Assembly: GCA_964432405.1 (NCBI GenBank)
Contig: CAYSNH010000001.1
Coordinates: 162,080-194,079, forward strand
DNA: 32,000 nucleotides
Direction of reading: 5' to 3'
DNA from: an uncultured Candidatus Saccharibacteria bacterium
GTDB taxonomy: Bacteria; Patescibacteriota; Minisyncoccia; UBA6257; UBA11618
In this document: one piece after another, positions 3,704 to 31,164 of the stretch
Layout of the letters: every line of letters begins with the position of its first letter
Numbering within the stretch: the first letter of the stretch is position 1
Position numbers and translations under genes: made by a program
Notes under the pieces: generated by a model
Database searches by the model: none
Told to the model about the DNA's origin: nothing
Seen by the model: the letters and a program-made list of their open reading frames with translations, nothing else

Positions 3704-5479
3704 CTAATATTCAATATACATCTCATCCTCGTCAGGTAAATGGTCTTTGTCTTGCCCAAGACCTTTAAATACTAACAGCTCCTCAGGTATTTCGTATAAA
3801 AATCTTGAAGGAATACTGTTTAAGGTGAGGAATAGATTTTTTCTAGCCCTAGTCATAGCAACATACATTAATCGCCTTTCCTCTTCTAACTCTTCTGGAG
3901 AGCCTAGAGATCTTTCGTGAGGTAATAATCCTTCACTACAACCACAAACAAAAACATTATCAAACTCCAATCCTTTTGATAAATGAATTGTCATCAATTT
4001 AACTCCACCCATCCCCTCAGGCTGATCCTGGCTTTGTACCAAGCTAACCGCTTCCAAAAAAGCAGCTAAACCCTGACTTTCAAAAGAAGAGGCAAAATTA
4101 ACCAGCTCCTGAATATTTTCAATCCTCTCTTTGTAGTTTTTATAATGACTTTCTAGATAGCTAATATAATTAGAGTTATTTAGAAATGAATCAATCAATT
4201 GAGTGAGGCTAAGTTCTGTTGCTAGACGGGGTAGGTTTTCAATTAACACCCTGCTACGCCTCTTACCAAAAGCTTTTTGCAGACGCTCAAAGCTAACTTC
4301 GTCATTAGGATTAAAAGCAAAGCGTAATCCAGCCAATAAATCTTTAACCTCTTTTCTTTCATAAAAGCGAATACCGCCAAAAACCTGGTAAGGTATTTGT
4401 TCGTATATTAAAGCTTGCTCAATAGCTCGTGATTGAGCGTTAGTGCGATATAAAATGGCTATTTCATCAGAACTGTTATTAGATCCTCTCAGATCCATTA
4501 TTTTAGAGGTAATCCAACCAGCCTCTTCTTCTTCTGATTGAGAAGTGGTGACATTTATTTTATTGCCGGCTGGATTTTGAGTCCAGAGAGTTTTTTCTTT
4601 CTGAAACTTATTATGTTTAATCAATTCATTAGCCGCATTAATGATATTGGCGGAAGAGCGATAGTTTTCTTCTAATAAAACTACTTTGGCGTTAGGCCAA
4701 TCTTTTTCAAAGTTAAGAAAATTACGAAAATCAGCATGTCGCCAGCCATAAATTGATTGAGCATCATCACCCACAACGCTAAGGTTGTTATGTTTTTTAG
4801 CTAGCAGCTTTATTAATAGGTATTGGGTCACATTAGTGTCTTGAAACTCATCAACTAAAATATATTTAAATCTATTTTGATACTTTTTTAATATCTTAGG
4901 GTCATCTCTCAACAAAATAACTATTTTTTCAATCAAGTCATCAAAGTCAAAAGCATTACACTTCTTTAAGGTCTTCTCGTATATCTCATAAGCCCTAGTC
5001 ATCATCTCATCATCATTAGATGAGACTAACTCACTTTTTATTTTTGAAATATAATAACGTATTAAACGAGGCTTATACTCTTCCTTGTCCAAATGGAGCT
5101 CTTTAATAATCTTTCTAATAACAGATAAAGAATCACCGTCATCGAAGATTGTAAATTGAGAGCTTCTTCCTAAATGTTTTGCTTCAACTCTTAATAAGCG
5201 AGCTCCTAATGAATGAAAGGTGCTAACAATTAATCCCTTGGTATTAACATTTTTGGCCTGACAATCTCTTTCTATCCGAAACTTCATTTCATTAGCAGCC
5301 TTGTTGGTAAAGGTAATGGCTAATATTTTCTCAGCTGGAACACCGGACTCTAAAAGACTAATAATTCTATTAGTTAAAGTCTTTGTTTTGCCAGATCCCG
5401 CCCCTGCCGCAATCAATAAAGGACCCTCTTTATAATCAACGGCCTCTTGTTGATTTTTGTTAAGTTTTTCTGTTATCAT
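3704..5479 (-). CDS. pcrA: UvrD/PcrA-type ATP-dependent DNA helicase (compact, 591 aa)
   Basis: Walker A AGAGSGKTKTLTNRI, DEFQDT (motif II), VGDDAQSIYGWRHA, TIHLSKGLEFDNVFV and VAMTRARKNLFL motifs of SF1 UvrD-like helicases. Confidence 0.9.
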   Translation of the reverse strand: MITEKLNKNQQEAVDYKEGPLLIAAGAGSGKTKTLTNRIISLLESGVPAEKILAITFTNKAANEMKFRIERDCQAKNVNTKGLIVSTFHSLGARLLRVEAKHLGRSSQFTIFDDGDSLSVIRKIIKELHLDKEEYKPRLIRYYISKIKSELVSSNDDEMMTRAYEIYEKTLKKCNAFDFDDLIEKIVILLRDDPKILKKYQNRFKYILVDEFQDTNVTQYLLIKLLAKKHNNLSVVGDDAQSIYGWRHADFRNFLNFEKDWPNAKVVLLEENYRSSANIINAANELIKHNKFQKEKTLWTQNPAGNKINVTTSQSEEEEAGWITSKIMDLRGSNNSSDEIAILYRTNAQSRAIEQALIYEQIPYQVFGGIRFYERKEVKDLLAGLRFAFNPNDEVSFERLQKAFGKRRSRVLIENLPRLATELSLTQLIDSFLNNSNYISYLESHYKNYKERIENIQELVNFASSFESQGLAAFLEAVSLVQSQDQPEGMGGVKLMTIHLSKGLEFDNVFVCGCSEGLLPHERSLGSPEELEEERRLMYVAMTRARKNLFLTLNSIPSRFLYEIPEELLVFKGLGQDKDHLPDEDEMYIEY

Positions 5480-21275: not shown

Positions 21276-21770
21276 ATGCCTCAATTTTTATCACACATAG
21301 TTCCTCAGTGTACGGGAAGATTATTCCCTAACAATATAGAAAGACTGTGTACTTTTTGTGACTTAATAAAGATGCTTGATAATATAGTTAAATTTTTAGC
21401 TGGTCTGGCTCCCTTTTTAGCTATCATTCTTATAATTTGGGGAGCCTTCCTTGTCATTACAGCCGGCGGATCTTCTGATAGATTGTCTAGTGGTAAAAAA
21501 GTTATTCAAGCTGCTGTCGTTGGTCTAGCCATCGTACTTGGAGCTTGGGTTATAGTTAGTACAGTATTTCTCATCATTACTGGCGGCAATAGATTTTATG
21601 GCGCTCCATTGCCTTGGCATTCTATTCGCTGCACTCAACTTAACACCCCTTCTAAACCTCGATCTCAATCACTAGGGCCAGGTAGGCATGGTGATGTTAG
21701 TAGCGCACAAGAAGCTAGAGAATTTGGCTATAGTGAAGAGCATATAAGAATGATTTATCCGGAAGAATAG
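21276..21770 (+). CDS. TrbC/VirB2-like (T4SS-type) pilin paralogue 1, Cys-motif N-terminus
   Basis: N-terminal IVPQCTG...CTFCDL motif, then a two-helix hairpin LAIILIIWGAFLVITAGGSSDRLSSGKKVIQAAVVGLAIVLGAWVIV shared with the next two genes. An extra 60-aa hydrophilic tail follows. Confidence 0.65.
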   Translation: MPQFLSHIVPQCTGRLFPNNIERLCTFCDLIKMLDNIVKFLAGLAPFLAIILIIWGAFLVITAGGSSDRLSSGKKVIQAAVVGLAIVLGAWVIVSTVFLIITGGNRFYGAPLPWHSIRCTQLNTPSKPRSQSLGPGRHGDVSSAQEAREFGYSEEHIRMIYPEE

Positions 21771-21804
21771 TCACTTACTATAATAATCTGGTATTATTAA
21801 TATA

Positions 21805-22230
21805 ATGAAAGTAATCTTACTAAAACTTCTTCAAGTTCAGACAGCTTTTGCTAGAAATCACTATATGATGATTGATGATTCTGGTGGTGGTCAGATTTCT
21901 CCAGTTGGAGCCGGACAGATTTCTCCAGTTGGAGCCGGACAGATTTCTCCAGTTGGCGGCGGCGATATAGTTTTTACCAGCCCTTTAGGCGGGTATAGTA
22001 ATCTGCAGCTCATCCTTGATAGAGTCATTAATGGCTTACTTATTTTAGCTACCCCAGTAGTGGTTATTATGATTCTTTGGGCTGGTTATCAATTTATAGT
22101 ATCTGGCGGTAGTCCAGATAAGATAACTAAGGCTCGTCAGACTATTCTTTGGGCTGCTGTTGGTTATGGTATTTTGCTTCTATCAAGAGGAATTACCTTT
22201 ATAATTCAACAGTTATTAACAGGATACTAA
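21805..22230 (+). CDS. TrbC/VirB2-like pilin paralogue 2 with an N-terminal (GQISPVGA)x3 repeat
   Basis: Signal-like MKVILLKLLQVQTAFA, the repeat, then VVVIMILWAGYQFIVSGGSPDKITKARQTILWAAVGYGILLLS, the same two-TM hairpin with the SGG...K loop. Confidence 0.7.
   Translation: MKVILLKLLQVQTAFARNHYMMIDDSGGGQISPVGAGQISPVGAGQISPVGGGDIVFTSPLGGYSNLQLILDRVINGLLILATPVVVIMILWAGYQFIVSGGSPDKITKARQTILWAAVGYGILLLSRGITFIIQQLLTGY
21889..21960 (+). repeat. 3 x 24-bp in-frame tandem repeat
   Basis: Units are ggtcagatttctccagttggagcc, ggacagatttctccagttggagcc and ggacagatttctccagttggcggc. They encode GQISPVGA, GQISPVGA and GQISPVGG. Confidence 0.95.
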
Positions 22231-27503: not shown

Positions 27504-27576
27504 GGGCCTGTAGCTCAATGGTTAGAGCGCCAAGCTTATACCTTGGTGGTTCCTGGTTCGAATCCAGGCAGGCCCA
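27504..27576 (+). tRNA. tRNA-Ile (anticodon UAU)
   Basis: Acceptor GGGCCTG/CAGGCCC, D arm GCTC-AATGGTTA-GAGC, anticodon arm CCAAG-CTTATAC-CTTGG (positions 34-36 = TAT), T arm CCTGG-TTCGAAT-CCAGG, discriminator A. The body resembles Ile2-type tRNAs. No CCA. Confidence 0.85.
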
Positions 27577-27578
27577 CA

Positions 27579-28186: not shown

Positions 28187-29491
28187 ATGAAAGACTGTTA
28201 CAAAGTTCACTGTGGTCGTCTTCAAAATGGCTTAAGGTTTTATAGTCAAAATGATAGTAGTGAATCAAAGGAGTTGGCCTTGATTGTTATCATGGCTGGC
28301 TCTATTCACGATCCTCCTAACCGTAGAGGTCTCTCACATCTAACGGAGCATGTTATATGCGCTGAATCAAAACAGCATAATCCTCAGCAGGTTGAATCGA
28401 TTATGCACAGAACTATTGGCTATAGTGATTTAGCTTGGATTACTACTGGTAGGACAGCTACTACATTTGGTCCAATGGACAGTATAAAAAAATCTCACAA
28501 TCGAAACCTCTTCAACATGTTTTCTTGCATGATTAAGGAACCGGTTATTTCTAAATCAGTCTGTGATTCAGAGAAAGCTAGTGTCAATCAAGAACATTTT
28601 CTGATGGCACGAGATTCGATGGTAGATTGGATAGAGGATCTATTCTGCGAGCTCCTTTTTCCTAAAAGGTTTACTGCTCGAAATCCAATCGATGGCCGAA
28701 TGAGCGATGTTCGCCGCTCCTCTCTTCTTGATATCAATAGGCATATTCAAAGATACTATGTCCCTAAGAATGCGTTCGTTGTTTATTTGGGACCTAGTCA
28801 TTCGGAAGTTGCAAGGTTGATTGAAAGAGAGTTGGGAGATTGGGTTAATCAGCCGAGGCATTATAATCCTAGTTTTCGAACTAGGTACAATGCTGATTCG
28901 TACGTTCTTAAAAAGCCAAAAAGGAAGGTCGTTGTTCGGCCAGGTATTCATCAGTATCATGTTGCTATAGGCTTCCCTACCGAAACCTATCTTAGTAAAG
29001 ATGCTGAGGCTATCGATATCCTTGCTAGAATTCTTTCTAGACGGATGTATGGAGAGATAAGGACTAAGAACCAGTCTTGGTCAGGAGGTTCTTATCGATC
29101 ACCGGTATTAACAGAAAGGACTTTTGCTCACGGATTATTTTGTTTTCACTTTGCTACCATTGACCAGAGTTTTGTAAGAGTCGGAATAAGAGCCTTTCGC
29201 GATCAATGCCGTTTGCTATGCGATCAGCTTGTTAGTAGGTCGGAGGCTGAAGATTGTATTGGTTTTATGTACGACAGTGAGTTCATGGAGGTTTTTAAAA
29301 GATGTCCTTCCTTGCTCATGGATGAAATTGTAGCAAGCGTTTCAAATGGAGATCTTGATTTAACAAGGTTGCATGAAAGGGGAGAGAGGATCAACAAATA
29401 CCTCAGAAGAGGAGGTCGTGCCAAATTGAGAGAGGTGGCTCAAAAGTATCTTTCTCAGAATAGTGCTTGTGTTGTAATCAAGCCATCTTAA
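28187..29491 (+). CDS. M16 (pitrilysin/insulinase) family zinc peptidase, solitary, no signal peptide (cassette D, gene 2)
   Basis: Inverted zinc motif HxxEH in GLSHLTEHVICAE near the N-terminus, with a downstream acidic residue in SVNQEHF. 434 aa is the typical two-domain M16 size. SD AAGGAG lies 8 nt before the ATG. R/C/H-rich composition. Confidence 0.75.
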   Translation: MKDCYKVHCGRLQNGLRFYSQNDSSESKELALIVIMAGSIHDPPNRRGLSHLTEHVICAESKQHNPQQVESIMHRTIGYSDLAWITTGRTATTFGPMDSIKKSHNRNLFNMFSCMIKEPVISKSVCDSEKASVNQEHFLMARDSMVDWIEDLFCELLFPKRFTARNPIDGRMSDVRRSSLLDINRHIQRYYVPKNAFVVYLGPSHSEVARLIERELGDWVNQPRHYNPSFRTRYNADSYVLKKPKRKVVVRPGIHQYHVAIGFPTETYLSKDAEAIDILARILSRRMYGEIRTKNQSWSGGSYRSPVLTERTFAHGLFCFHFATIDQSFVRVGIRAFRDQCRLLCDQLVSRSEAEDCIGFMYDSEFMEVFKRCPSLLMDEIVASVSNGDLDLTRLHERGERINKYLRRGGRAKLREVAQKYLSQNSACVVIKPS

Positions 29492-29498
29492 CAAAGAC

Positions 29499-29522
29499 CA
29501 GACCCCAATCGGGGTCTTTTTT
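29499..29522 (+). terminator. intrinsic terminator of the M16 gene
   Basis: AGACCCC-aatc-GGGGTCT followed by TTTTTATTTTT. Confidence 0.8.
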
Positions 29523-29528
29523 ATTTTT

Positions 29529-29580
29529 AAGTGTCTACCACGGCCTAGATGGTAGACACTTTGGTAGACAGTGGTAGACA
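29529..29580. repeat. cluster of four TGGTAGACA 9-mers (one inverted, three direct)
   Basis: TGTCTACCA at 29532-29540. TGGTAGACA at 29550-29558, 29562-29570 and 29572-29580. The first two copies form a 12-bp-stem hairpin, AAGTGTCTACCA-(9 nt)-TGGTAGACACTT. Confidence 0.9.
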
Positions 29581-29618
29581 CCCCCTGTTTTTTAAAATAT
29601 TGTAGATTTTATCGAGCT

Positions 29619-29699
29619 ATCGGGTTTTCAAAAATTGACAAATATCATTTTTTAATGTCAAACATGGGTCTTTTTTTAGTGTTTTTTGGAAAACCCGAT
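29619..29699. repeat. nested inverted repeats (possible structured RNA or protein-binding site)
   Basis: Outer arms ATCGGGTTTTC (29619-29629) and GAAAACCCGAT (29689-29699). Inner arms TTGACA (29635-29640) and TGTCAA (29656-29661). Confidence 0.8.
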
Positions 29700-29757
29700 A
29701 TGCCCATAAAACCTATAAGAATTCGCGATTTTGCCAAAAACAGCTATTTTCGGTGGT

Positions 29758-29781
29758 AGACGTCTACCATCCTTACGTAAA
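29758..29781. repeat. left arm of a 24-bp perfect inverted repeat flanking the LAGLIDADG-like gene
   Basis: AGACGTCTACCATCCTTACGTAAA. Its outer end forms the 16-bp palindrome TGGTAGACGTCTACCA (29754-29769). Confidence 0.95.
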
Positions 29782-29798
29782 AAAAATAAAAAATTCCC

Positions 29799-30203
29799 CT
29801 ACTTTTTCCAATAACCTGTCCTATGTAGTCTGTAAAATAGCTTATAAAGCTTTGGAACAGCAGGATCCTTCCCTATTTTATTGAGCCAGCTAATAAATTC
29901 CTTTCCCTTACTCCCCTTTAATTGGTTATAAAAGAATGGAATTATTATGTTTTTTATTTGATTGAAATCCCTTACAGCTATTTTTGCCGAACTTTTTCTT
30001 TTTGCCCCATCTTTTTTATAAGGATCGTGTACGTATATTTTATTCTTTAAACCTAGATATAGCTTAACTTCTTTAACCATTTCTTTATCTTTAGCCTCCA
30101 TTACAAAATAAAAGGCAGGGATCTTTTTTGTCCCATTGCCGGAAAAAGTAAAAATTGCCTTACTTTCGGCAATTCCTAGTATGTAGTCTTTTGATAATTT
30201 CAT
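29799..30203 (-). CDS. single-motif LAGLIDADG-like homing endonuclease homologue (134 aa, degenerate motif)
   Basis: N-terminal DYILGIAESKAIFTF aligns with the LAGLIDADG helix (compare GFIDAEGCF), but the second acidic position is Lys. NIIIPFFYNQLKGSKGKEFISWLNKI matches the conserved IxxFxxYxLxGxKxxxFxxW block of LAGLIDADG_1 proteins. AT-rich and without an SD, like the core genes. Confidence 0.55.
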   Translation of the reverse strand: MKLSKDYILGIAESKAIFTFSGNGTKKIPAFYFVMEAKDKEMVKEVKLYLGLKNKIYVHDPYKKDGAKRKSSAKIAVRDFNQIKNIIIPFFYNQLKGSKGKEFISWLNKIGKDPAVPKLYKLFYRLHRTGYWKK

Positions 30204-30226
30204 TTACGTAAGGATGGTAGACGTCT
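30203..30226. repeat. right arm of the 24-bp perfect inverted repeat
   Basis: TTTACGTAAGGATGGTAGACGTCT, the exact reverse complement of 29758-29781. Followed by the near-palindrome TGGTAGACGTCTGCCA (30215-30230). Confidence 0.95.
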
Positions 30227-30243
30227 GCCATTGCTGCGTAATT

Positions 30244-30274
30244 ATAAAAATGTTTCACTGTGAAACATTTTTAT
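30244..30274. promoter_or_regulatory. 31-bp perfect palindrome in a divergent intergenic region (candidate operator)
   Basis: ATAAAAATGTTTCAC-T-GTGAAACATTTTTAT, between the divergent starts at 30203 (-) and 30377 (+). Confidence 0.5.
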
Positions 30275-30376
30275 TATAAGCTATATAAAATATATAAACA
30301 AATTTGTTTTATTCCGTTTACTTATATAAAGTTTAGTAAAGTACTTTGAAACTCGTTGATTGCTTAGGAGGAACTT

Positions 30377-30706
30377 ATGTTATTCGAAAATCATCGTGAA
30401 GAGATGCTGAGGCTCATAAAGGGCTTGGGTGAATTACCAAAAGAAAGTTACCAAACTAATATCACGATTTTTATCAAAGCTGATGTGGAGACAGGCGAAG
30501 GATTCTCCGCTTCCACTTTGATTGAGATTATAAAGGAAGAGTTTGGCGATACGCCCTTAGATCAGATTAGGATTGGCACTACTACAAGTCTGAGGATAGA
30601 AGGCGACAGTGATTCCCAAACCCCTTTTATTTGCCTGATTGGCTCAGTAGATGAAGAGAGTGATGAATCAGAATCATGGGATCAAAGTCCTCCTTCCATG
30701 AACTAA
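30377..30706 (+). CDS. 109-aa strongly acidic ORFan (cassette E)
   Basis: ATG preceded by TAGGAGGAA (5-nt spacing). D/E-rich C-terminus VDEESDESESWDQ. Followed by a hairpin terminator. No family recognised. Confidence 0.7.
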   Translation: MLFENHREEMLRLIKGLGELPKESYQTNITIFIKADVETGEGFSASTLIEIIKEEFGDTPLDQIRIGTTTSLRIEGDSDSQTPFICLIGSVDEESDESESWDQSPPSMN

Positions 30707-30711
30707 AAAAA

Positions 30712-30739
30712 CACCCCCTTATTAAATGGGGGGCTTTTA
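30712..30739. terminator. bidirectional hairpin terminator
   Basis: CCCCC-ttattaaat-GGGGGG flanked by an A-run and TTTTATTT, between the convergent stops at 30706 (+) and 30752 (-). Confidence 0.65.
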
Positions 30740-30751
30740 TTTGGTTATAAT

Positions 30752-31081
30752 TTATTTACAATTTCTACAAAGACTTGATTCGGGAGAGATCTCTATCTTT
30801 TCTTCATCGATCCCTTCATTGCATTTTTCGCACTTGCCGTATTCTCCTTTATCGATTTTCTCTAATGCATTATCGATGGCTTTTAATCTTTCCTTGAGAG
30901 AATCTCTAATAGCAGCATTATTAACCATTGCCTCTGCCTCATCAGCCTCTTGATCAAACGAAGTGCCTTCTGTGTCACTTCCCATATCTTCAACAAGGGG
31001 AGTCTTAGCAATCAACCCTTCAAGTTCCTTCTTATTACTCTCTAGACTATCTTTATATTTTTTAAGTTCTTCTTGTGTCAT
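30752..31081 (-). CDS. DksA/TraR-family C4 zinc-finger protein
   Basis: C-terminal CEKCNEGIDEEKIEISPESSLCRNC (CxxC-N17-CxxC) preceded by a coiled-coil region. The track start at 31111 adds an atypical hydrophobic MIFCCIYTFG, so I prefer ATG 31081 (MTQEELKKYK...). The start remains uncertain. Confidence 0.7.
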   Translation of the reverse strand: MTQEELKKYKDSLESNKKELEGLIAKTPLVEDMGSDTEGTSFDQEADEAEAMVNNAAIRDSLKERLKAIDNALEKIDKGEYGKCEKCNEGIDEEKIEISPESSLCRNCK

Positions 31082-31164
31082 ACCAAAAGTATAGATGCAA
31101 CAAAAAATCATTTCAATAACCTTTTACAAATAACTAATATCGTGTTATTAATTATTTTGCATAA

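Follow-up and report, generated by a model that had tools for sequence, protein, structure and literature searches.

Homing endonucleases have been described in introns, in inteins and in the genomes of phages, and the homodimeric LAGLIDADG proteins of the I-CreI type recognise palindromes of about 16-20 bp. The LAGLIDADG scaffold may also outlive its catalytic residues, as in WhiA, which the host has kept as a DNA-binding protein. Bacteria of the candidate phyla radiation (CPR) are rich in single-domain LAGLIDADG enzymes, known from rRNA insertions, and include the source of the homodimeric enzyme I-ShaI (PMC11270868). In this study, we analysed a stretch of 32,000 nt (the window) from an uncultured Candidatus Saccharibacteria bacterium (contig CAYSNH010000001.1, positions 162,080 to 194,079), in which a free-standing gene for a 134-aa LAGLIDADG-like protein, ORF134, lies between inverted repeats. 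We give about an even chance to the explanation that ORF134 is a catalytically dead, domesticated LAGLIDADG relic, kept by selection, which recognises as a homodimer the palindromes flanking its own gene.

ORF134 shares with I-CreI, I-CeuI and I-ShaI a single LAGLIDADG domain (~130-180 aa), the same core fold and a palindromic DNA site beside the gene. Unlike these enzymes, it stands free among non-coding repeats and not in an intron, intein or rRNA insertion, has 134 aa with Lys in place of the catalytic acid, matches the LAGLIDADG_1 model only at the borderline, and does not interrupt its site. The best match in both sequence and structure is the yeast mitochondrial bI3 maturase (2ab5), whose second motif, FFEAKS, has Lys where the GIAESKA of ORF134 does; however, bI3 is a two-domain, intron-encoded protein that binds a group I intron RNA, whereas ORF134 has one domain and no intron was detected at its locus. 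WhiA differs in having two degenerate LAGLIDADG domains and a C-terminal helix-turn-helix (HTH) and in being near-universal in Gram-positive bacteria, while ORF134 is a single domain with no HTH, in a patchy family that mostly retains the catalytic Glu. Yeast HO and the seg and mob genes of phage T4 are likewise endonuclease genes outside introns and inteins, beside a conserved site and patchy among relatives. HO is eukaryotic, though, and the T4 genes are phage-borne GIY-YIG/HNH enzymes, whereas the ORF134 family is chromosomal, bacterial and LAGLIDADG-type and occupies one non-coding niche, with this copy almost certainly inactive. Finally, the surrounding repeats resemble parS/ParB sites and DnaA-box clusters (16-bp palindromes with central ACGT; 9-mer boxes about one helical turn apart), but the parS-like site of the window has an extra base, and the window shows neither a skew or orientation switch nor a nearby dnaA. 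The gene and its two flanking arms are arranged as follows.

29799-30203, minus strand: ORF134, a free-standing, single-domain LAGLIDADG-like protein, catalytically degenerate (134 aa, ATG start; list of open reading frames, ORFs).
30156-30182, minus strand: degenerate LAGLIDADG helix motif ILGIAESKA, residues 8-16 (family alignment).
29754-29787, no strand: arm by the 3' end of ORF134, made of the palindrome P16 TGGTAGACGTCTACCA (29754-29769), TCC, the palindrome P8 TTACGTAA (29773-29780) and an A-run (repeat search and direct reading).
30197-30230, no strand: arm by the 5' end of ORF134, made of P8 TTACGTAA (30204-30211), GGA and a degenerate P16 TGGTAGACGTCTGCCA (30215-30230) (repeat search and direct reading).

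The original prediction had assigned ORF134 to the LAGLIDADG fold and proposed a structural check; we searched profiles and modelled the protein. Alone, ORF134 matched LAGLIDADG_1 at 21.4 bits, slightly below the Pfam cut-off of 23.1; it is one domain of 134 aa with no further Pfam domain, and no NCBIfam model matched ORF134, its neighbours or two homologues. The top sequence match in the Protein Data Bank (PDB) was the bI3 maturase 2ab5 (phmmer, E=7e-7). With an alignment of related clusters as input, AlphaFold2 (AF2) gave a model of pLDDT 95 and pTM 0.86 with the element order alpha-beta-beta-alpha-beta-beta-alpha plus two extra C-terminal helices. A Foldseek search with this model returned bI3 maturase, I-OnuI and I-TnaI at probability 1.0, and the query-relative TM-score was ~0.66 against many LAGLIDADG structures. 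The family profile matched I-LtrWI at E=1e-18, and 25 of 36 family members matched PF00961. The LAGLIDADG fold is thus confirmed.

The family alignment shows a replacement of the catalytic acid. Where the family has the consensus EYIRGLxEGEGxFTF, ORF134 has DYILGIAESKAIFTF, in which S14, K15 and A16 replace the consensus G, E and G, with both flanking glycines gone. Lys15 (codon 30159-30161) aligns with the second, catalytic Glu of the consensus G-L-I-E-G-E-G, in agreement with the earlier placement of Lys at the second acidic position, and the acidic metal-binding residue expected at the C-terminal end of the LAGLIDADG helix is missing from ORF134. About 35 of 40 genome-encoded homologues retain the G-E/D-G-E-G motif. 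Judged from its residues, the active site of ORF134 is almost certainly dead, and because of K15 the site-specific double-strand cleavage of homodimeric LAGLIDADG endonucleases, with its 4-nt 3' overhangs, is expected to be absent.

We then assessed how the gene has been maintained. The host is a marine Patescibacteria (CPR) bacterium; an identical ORF134 protein is found on many marine metagenome contigs and in the metagenome-assembled genome (MAG) "Patescibacteria group bacterium UBA11618" (L022 among our numbered loci), and all nine same-species loci (L001-L008, L022) encode identical ORF134, their strains differing at one nucleotide, 29832. In a second lineage (L009/L065), ORF134 lies at the same place and is 86% identical with the same AESKA motif, next to an M16 peptidase that is 61% identical. 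Between the two lineages, dN/dS of ORF134 was 0.12 at a dS of 0.61, and that of its neighbours was 0.07 (FtsH) and 0.09 (a DksA-like gene). Since both lineages carry AESKA, a dN/dS of 0.12 indicates purifying selection after the loss of the catalytic acid, and the insertion is old because the gene occupies the same place in a second lineage at dS ~0.6. By these comparisons, ORF134 is neither a decaying pseudogene nor a recent arrival. It keeps the fold, has lost the catalytic residue and is under purifying selection, the combination that marks a domesticated LAGLIDADG protein, and the earlier suggestion of an inactive or domesticated binder fits such a dN/dS against an orthologue that also lacks the acid.

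Between the two strain groups of the species, ORF and arms (29701-30230) differed by one single-nucleotide polymorphism (SNP) and one A-run indel in 530 nt, and the neighbouring genes (28187-29491 and 30377-31111) by ~1.5-2.8%; the low variation, in small numbers, may be due to constraint, to a recent sweep or to movement of the cassette by recombination. In the sister lineage, the M16 peptidase is a 139-aa fragment in L009 (2463-2882) and L010 (1074-1493) and has its full length of 433 aa elsewhere, e.g. in L065 (663-1964); the short call stems either from an assembly error or from a gene that has decayed in some strains. The last ~90 nt of contig L066, beyond the ORF at 4626-5030, form a perfect fold-back around the parS-like palindrome (ACCATCGCTGCGTAG...GTTTCACTGTGAAAC...CTACGTAGCGATGGT), probably an assembly artefact at a hairpin and not biology.

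We next examined the arms. The perfect 24-nt inverted repeats described around the 134-aa ORF were recovered with the same coordinates and sequences. The arms are 34 nt each and 91% complementary, with the perfect 24-nt core at 29758-29781 and 30203-30226; the 3' arm lies 17 nt from the stop codon, and the 5' arm takes in the A of the start codon. For the same-species locus L022, the inverted-repeat score observed across the ORF flanks was reached by 0 of 200 shuffles. Each arm is a composite of the 16-bp palindrome P16, TCC and the 8-bp palindrome P8, the second P16 copy (30215-30230) having one mismatch to TGGTAGACGTCTACCA, and each P16 copy is a back-to-back pair of GTCTACCAC boxes. The 12-nt extension of the arm (TCC, TTACGTAA, A) is confined to gene-carrying lineages. 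No second arm-ORF-arm copy was found in the 32-kb window and ~4 kb beyond (~36 kb). The remaining features of the non-coding region are as follows.

29500-29517, plus strand: intrinsic terminator that ends the upstream M16 peptidase gene and bounds the non-coding region on the left (terminator scan).
29529-29581, no strand: four GTCTACC/GGTAGAC boxes, three direct and one inverted, conserved in L009/L065 (motif search).
29595-29723, no strand: conserved non-coding module, an imperfect inverted repeat with 40-nt arms (29595-29634 and 29684-29723), 78% complementary, around a 49-nt core (repeat search).
30251-30267, no strand: parS-like palindrome TGTTTCAC-T-GTGAAACA, 17 bp, with the sole two GTTTCAC heptamers in 32 kb, upstream of the 5' arm.

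The window contains 10 copies of the heptamer GGTAGAC/GTCTACC where 1.9 are expected, a count reached in 0 of 100 shuffles, and seven of the 10 fall in 29533-30222. Read in the ORF direction, the array at 29529-29581 is GTCTACCAC-t-GTCTACCAA-agt-GTCTACCAT, 7 nt and an inverted GTGGTAGAC, the direct boxes being spaced 10 and 12 nt, or about one helical turn. The adjoining module corresponds to the 'tgtaggttttatgcg..ttatcgggttttt' units of other Patescibacteria and was found in ~40 loci, whether the gene is present or absent. The stretch bearing it (29525-29798) is 82% identical to L009, against ~56% expected at neutral sites (dS ~0.65).

The original prediction had read the arms as the two halves of one target: a homodimeric LAGLIDADG gene would have homed precisely to the midpoint of an intergenic palindrome of 48 bp, which implies an uninterrupted ...CCATCCTTACGTAAATTTACGTAAGGATGG... 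elsewhere. The exact geometry of arms and ORF and the LAGLIDADG fold agree with this, as does the use of palindromic sites by homodimeric enzymes (PMC11270868). However, a full 16-bp palindrome is present in each arm, and the GTCTACC box recurs four more times at 29529-29581. Half-sites of 24 nt would also be about twice the length contacted by a LAGLIDADG monomer. The proposed search for an empty site, run with the arms rejoined at a gap of 0-20 nt, gave 0 matches in metagenome_contigs, and the age of the insertion speaks against recent homing into such a target as well. The split-target model is already disfavoured, and we consider it very improbable; most likely, as far as the repeats can be read, the 'split palindrome' consists of two copies of the region's own 16-bp palindrome.

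The arms could instead act in RNA, the leader including the AUG pairing with the 3' untranslated region (UTR) in a duplex of at least 24 bp; ORF expression would then be controlled through a block of translation or through RNase III cleavage of the duplex. In a predicted fold of 29745-30240 (minus strand; z=-7.7), the arms pair and the AUG is buried in the minimum-free-energy (MFE) and centroid structures alike, so the stem noted in the original prediction does form in the model. A TATAAT was read upstream of the 5' arm, so that the arm would be transcribed, and a consensus scan found no promoter there; the parS-like site at 30251-30267 overlaps the likely -35 region of this TATAAT. Relative to the L009 lineage, 1 of 32 positions differs in the 3' arm and 7 of 34 in the less conserved 5' arm. 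One of these changes, A>G in P8 of the L009 5' arm, is mirrored by T>C in the other arm, turning an A:T pair into G:C, but four further 5'-arm changes are uncompensated. The 3' arm also belongs to a host repeat system present without the gene, and inverted flanks are no rule in the family, as described below. Control by such a stem thus seems improbable to us, and it could coexist with a domesticated, DNA-binding ORF134.

For the repeats at large, the evidence points to DNA. Arm mismatches of the downstream hairpins (GT 15, AC 22, other 44) show no G-U wobble bias, the conserved module folds equally well on both strands (z=-4.7 and -5.5), and strain SNPs within it are not compensatory on either strand. 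Rfam at the gathering threshold, applied to the window and 16 loci, returned tRNAs only, and a permissive RNA-family scan of 29350-30450 (E<=1) gave chance-level matches and no intron model, in keeping with the earlier description of the site as intergenic. We read the repeats as acting at the DNA level because they occur in mixed orientation, lack a G-U wobble excess and match no Rfam family.

To compare the locus with relatives of the window clade, gene-less loci were found through M16 proteins 50-54% identical to that of the window. None of the L154, L155, L157 and L158 loci encodes a LAGLIDADG protein, and all four have the box array downstream of the M16 gene. L157 and L158 share the order FtsH, M16, terminator, four GTCTACC/GGTAGAC boxes, hairpin module, UPF0102 convergent with M16, then more boxes and a second module; L155 likewise has the module, and in it GGTAGACaatGGTAGAC precedes a canonical DnaA box TGTGGATAA elsewhere in the locus. 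In L154, boxes and module are followed by one intact 20-bp palindrome CGTGGTAGACGTCTACCACG (2087-2106) and, after 47 nt, by the start of UPF0102 (E=5e-35 to the L041 protein). When the sequence between the two P16 copies is taken out of the window, L154 aligns with it collinearly, the extra unit of the window being a 12-nt inverted repeat, the ORF, a 12-nt inverted repeat and a second P16. Since gene-less L154 has them as well, P16, module and GTCTACC boxes belong to the host and are older than the gene or independent of it. L154 is the nearest thing to an empty site, with a single 16-20-bp palindrome. The idea of homing to a palindromic site therefore stands in so far as an uninterrupted host palindrome occurs at that position, but this is one 20-bp palindrome and not the rejoined 48 bp, and the repeats flanking ORF134 belong to arrays that exist with or without the gene.

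The comparison with L154 could also be read as a transposon-like cassette, with TCCTTACGTAAA / TTTACGTAAGGA as terminal inverted repeats and the two P16 copies as a 16-bp target-site duplication that looks inverted since it is palindromic. A single P16 in L154 set against P16, 12-nt repeat, cargo, 12-nt repeat and P16 in the window would suit this, as would the confinement of the 12-nt extension to gene-carrying lineages. Nevertheless, no transposase was found, the ~36 kb searched hold no second copy, the location is fixed in two lineages, and other family members have different flank architectures. A 16-bp duplication would also be longer than in any IS family we know of, and we find this explanation barely credible.

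Other candidates for an empty site were examined. In a search through M16, the lineage at 61% identity still has the gene and the loci at 51% identity (L068-L073) are not syntenic. An alignment of filled L036 with gene-less L075 was rejected, since divergence was too great for clean insertion boundaries. In L158, UPF0102 (1576-1968) is itself bracketed by an inverted pair (1546-1559 and 2074-2087) of the 20-bp-class palindrome AGTGTTCGCCGGCGAACA (ACGGACAGTGTTCGCCGGCGAACA...); as it is flanked like ORF134, palindrome-bracketed small genes are normal in this region. ORF134 holds in the window the slot and strand that UPF0102 holds in L158, and no UPF0102 homologue was found in the 32-kb window.

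We assessed how widely this arrangement occurs. Among 1.8 billion cluster representatives, 84 related clusters at 50% identity were found, all small (~100-165 aa). A genome scan, using a pattern from a 10-sequence alignment and one genome per species, returned 43 loci, all 43 in Patescibacteria; the named lineages are mostly of the Parcubacteria type (Liptonbacteria, Colwellbacteria, Wolfebacteria, Harrisonbacteria, Jorgensenbacteria), and many MAGs are labelled Saccharibacteria. UPF0102/YraN is the divergent neighbour of the LAGLIDADG gene in 33 of 40 loci, and NusA, FtsH, a DksA-like gene and a ComM-like gene recur nearby. Pairwise divergences of the LAGLIDADG gene and UPF0102 were correlated (Mantel r=0.40, 0 of 2000 permutations). 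A ~220-aa protein with a weak HTH_23 match was also seen near FtsH and the LAGLIDADG locus (L155 2553-3224, L156 1658-2329; cluster C12 in L040, L043, L048, L055).

A long non-coding stretch full of repeated boxes always lies downstream of the LAGLIDADG gene. In these stretches, GTGAAAC occurs in 20 of 40 loci (0.7 expected) and AAAGTGT in 25 of 40 (1.2 expected), together with lineage-specific 16-mers, e.g. TGTAAATCGGCAAACA and GTGTAATTTTTACACA, and tgtaggttttatgcg..ttatcgggttttt-type units in direct and inverted copies. The boxes are parS-like (GTTTCAC) in many lineages and of the GTCTACCAC type in the clade of the window. The canonical parS core, GTTTCACGTGAAAC, has one perfect copy on either side of the gene in L041, and in most lineages the start codon of the LAGLIDADG gene abuts a box. 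Tandem ~9-10-nt phased T-tract repeats, (A/C)GGTTTTTC in 5-8 copies, were seen in non-coding regions of L057, L074, L084, L085 and L058; beside the conserved hairpin module they suggest bent DNA or a DNA-unwinding element.

Flanking repeats were compared between 110 nt upstream and 130 nt downstream of the gene in 42 gene-bearing loci. A significant shared repeat was found in 20 of the 42, inverted in 13 and direct in 12, of which five score in both orientations because the motif is palindromic. In L077, the gene is bracketed by four direct copies of TTGTAAATTGTGAAAC, and palindromes stand beside intact-motif homologues in L021 (GCTTGTGTAATTTTTACACAAGC) and L041 (GCAAAGTTTCACGTGAAACTTTGC). Since direct flank repeats are about as frequent as inverted ones, the inverted orientation is no family property, and neither an RNA stem nor a split-palindrome target is likely to be universal.

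The same niche was examined from the side of UPF0102. In a metagenome scan with UPF0102 as query, a LAGLIDADG gene lay upstream of it in 3 of ~13 closest relatives, and gene-less L075, L078, L081, L083 and L087 have the same kind of repeat region directly upstream of UPF0102. L083 carries at least six perfect parS cores GTTTCACGTGAAAC in ~900 nt upstream of UPF0102 (at 1215), and L087 carries five GTTTCACGGCAAACA, a parS hybrid. The LAGLIDADG gene is optional in this niche; the repeats are not. The boxes of the UPF0102/YraN-side region also include CGGCAA/TTGCCG arrays and GTTTCACACTTT; the region was seen in L083, L087, L081, L075 and L078 and, downstream of the gene, in L024, L027, L041 and L044. 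We know of no earlier description of this Patescibacteria repeat region.

What the boxes serve bears on whether ORF134 is needed to bind them. In passages of two reports, canonical parS is given as TGTTTCACGTGAAACA (PMC7383237, PMC7022226). The parS-like site at 30251-30267 has one extra central base relative to it and so does not match the 16-bp TGTTNCACGTGAAACA; this extra dyad base is kept in L009/L065, where only its identity varies (A or T). P16 matches parS at 10 of 16 positions. A centromere-type region is suggested by the parS arrays of relatives and by parAB, which lies ~5 kb away from the locus in the window, with ParB encoded at 126-1067 of L001. The DnaA box of T. maritima has been defined biochemically as ACCTACCAC (PMC10316083), and GTCTACCAC matches it at 7 of 9 positions with an identical CTACCAC core; such boxes were seen in the window at 29529-29581 and 29752-29771, in L155 at 5387-5424 and in L158 at 1374-1480. 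The canonical DnaA box TTATCCACA is weakly enriched (0.5 vs 0.27 per kb), with a peak in the -500 bin that comes from a UPF0102 coding motif. At the window site neither GC skew nor gene orientation switches, and the skew of this genome keeps its sign across the locus; among 29 loci, 11 were origin-like, 4 opposite and 14 of the same sign, a comparison confounded by gene strand. No dnaA was found in the 32-kb window, and a literature search on the box sequences and DnaA gave nothing relevant. The conserved region beside UPF0102 could be a centromere and/or an origin; to our knowledge, neither has been experimentally defined for Patescibacteria.

On this basis ORF134 might be only a passenger, the boxes serving a DnaA-like or ParB-like host factor of an origin- or centromere-type region, and the protein having an unrelated role, e.g. 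maturase-like RNA binding, or merely persisting. Boxes and module in genomes without the gene would be explained, and so would the resemblance of GTCTACCAC to the T. maritima box at 10-12-nt spacing, the perfect parS arrays in the same region of L083 and L041, the nearby parAB, and a best PDB match to a maturase with the same Lys substitution. On the other hand, a dN/dS of 0.12 is incompatible with a functionless relic, the searches returned no structured RNA partner and the hairpin arms lack a wobble bias, and the start codon abutting a box in most lineages links ORF expression to the boxes. We hold the passenger explanation to be unlikely, though worth keeping in view.

The explanation that we favour, a domesticated binder, would run as follows. 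An active, free-standing endonuclease of the homodimer type would have colonised the repeat region and, in the window clade, settled beside the P16 palindrome. Its metal-binding Glu, now Lys15, was lost before the two known lineages diverged, and the protein has since been retained by purifying selection, in a form that would no longer cut. A dead homodimer would still be expected to bind the palindromes flanking its own gene, remains of the old target, and may act as an autoregulator or an architectural factor of the region. We infer dimerisation, the DNA bound and the effect of binding; palindrome binding is suggested because a 16-20-bp palindrome fits the size of a dimer and the start codon abuts a box in most lineages.

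Several points weigh against this explanation. Genomes that lack the gene still have the boxes, which must then be bound by some host protein and need not be bound by ORF134. Both parS and the sites of HTH dimers likewise take the form of a 16-bp palindrome with central ACGT. The bI3 maturase, which binds RNA, also has Lys at the catalytic position, and the partner of ORF134 could therefore be RNA. Neither the 12-nt extension nor the mirrored substitution in L009 is explained by copies of a host repeat alone, and the M16 protein of L154 is only ~54% identical to that of the window, so L154 is no true allelic empty site. A wider version, in which a free-standing Patescibacteria LAGLIDADG family is specialised on centromere- or origin-type boxes beside UPF0102 and has here been disarmed and co-opted as a structural or regulatory binder, we regard as doubtful.

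Two observations elsewhere in the window concern other genes. A tRNA-Ile(TAT) at 27504-27577 adjoins a tRNA-Val(TAC), an AUA-reading mode unusual for bacteria. Two adjacent small genes at 21276-22230 match the type IV secretion system (T4SS) pilin family PF18895, in housekeeping surroundings (GyrA, a solute-binding protein).

The fold and the catalytic loss of ORF134 are ordinary for LAGLIDADG biology, and the literature we found joining LAGLIDADG with Patescibacteria consists of rRNA-insertion enzymes (PMC11270868) or passing mentions. As far as our searches reached, two things are new: a Patescibacteria-wide, free-standing family tied to one repeat niche beside UPF0102, and a disarmed member of it that is kept by selection. 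The members with intact active sites and their flanking palindromes provide pairs of protein and candidate site for meganuclease work. If the family does target conserved, essential, palindromic non-coding sites, it would differ from enzymes with the usual rRNA or protein-coding targets. The locus also exposes a strikingly conserved repeat region of Patescibacteria that could be a centromere or an origin, and ORF134 offers a concrete, testable case in which a selfish nuclease of ultra-small bacteria may have become a host factor that binds DNA (or RNA).

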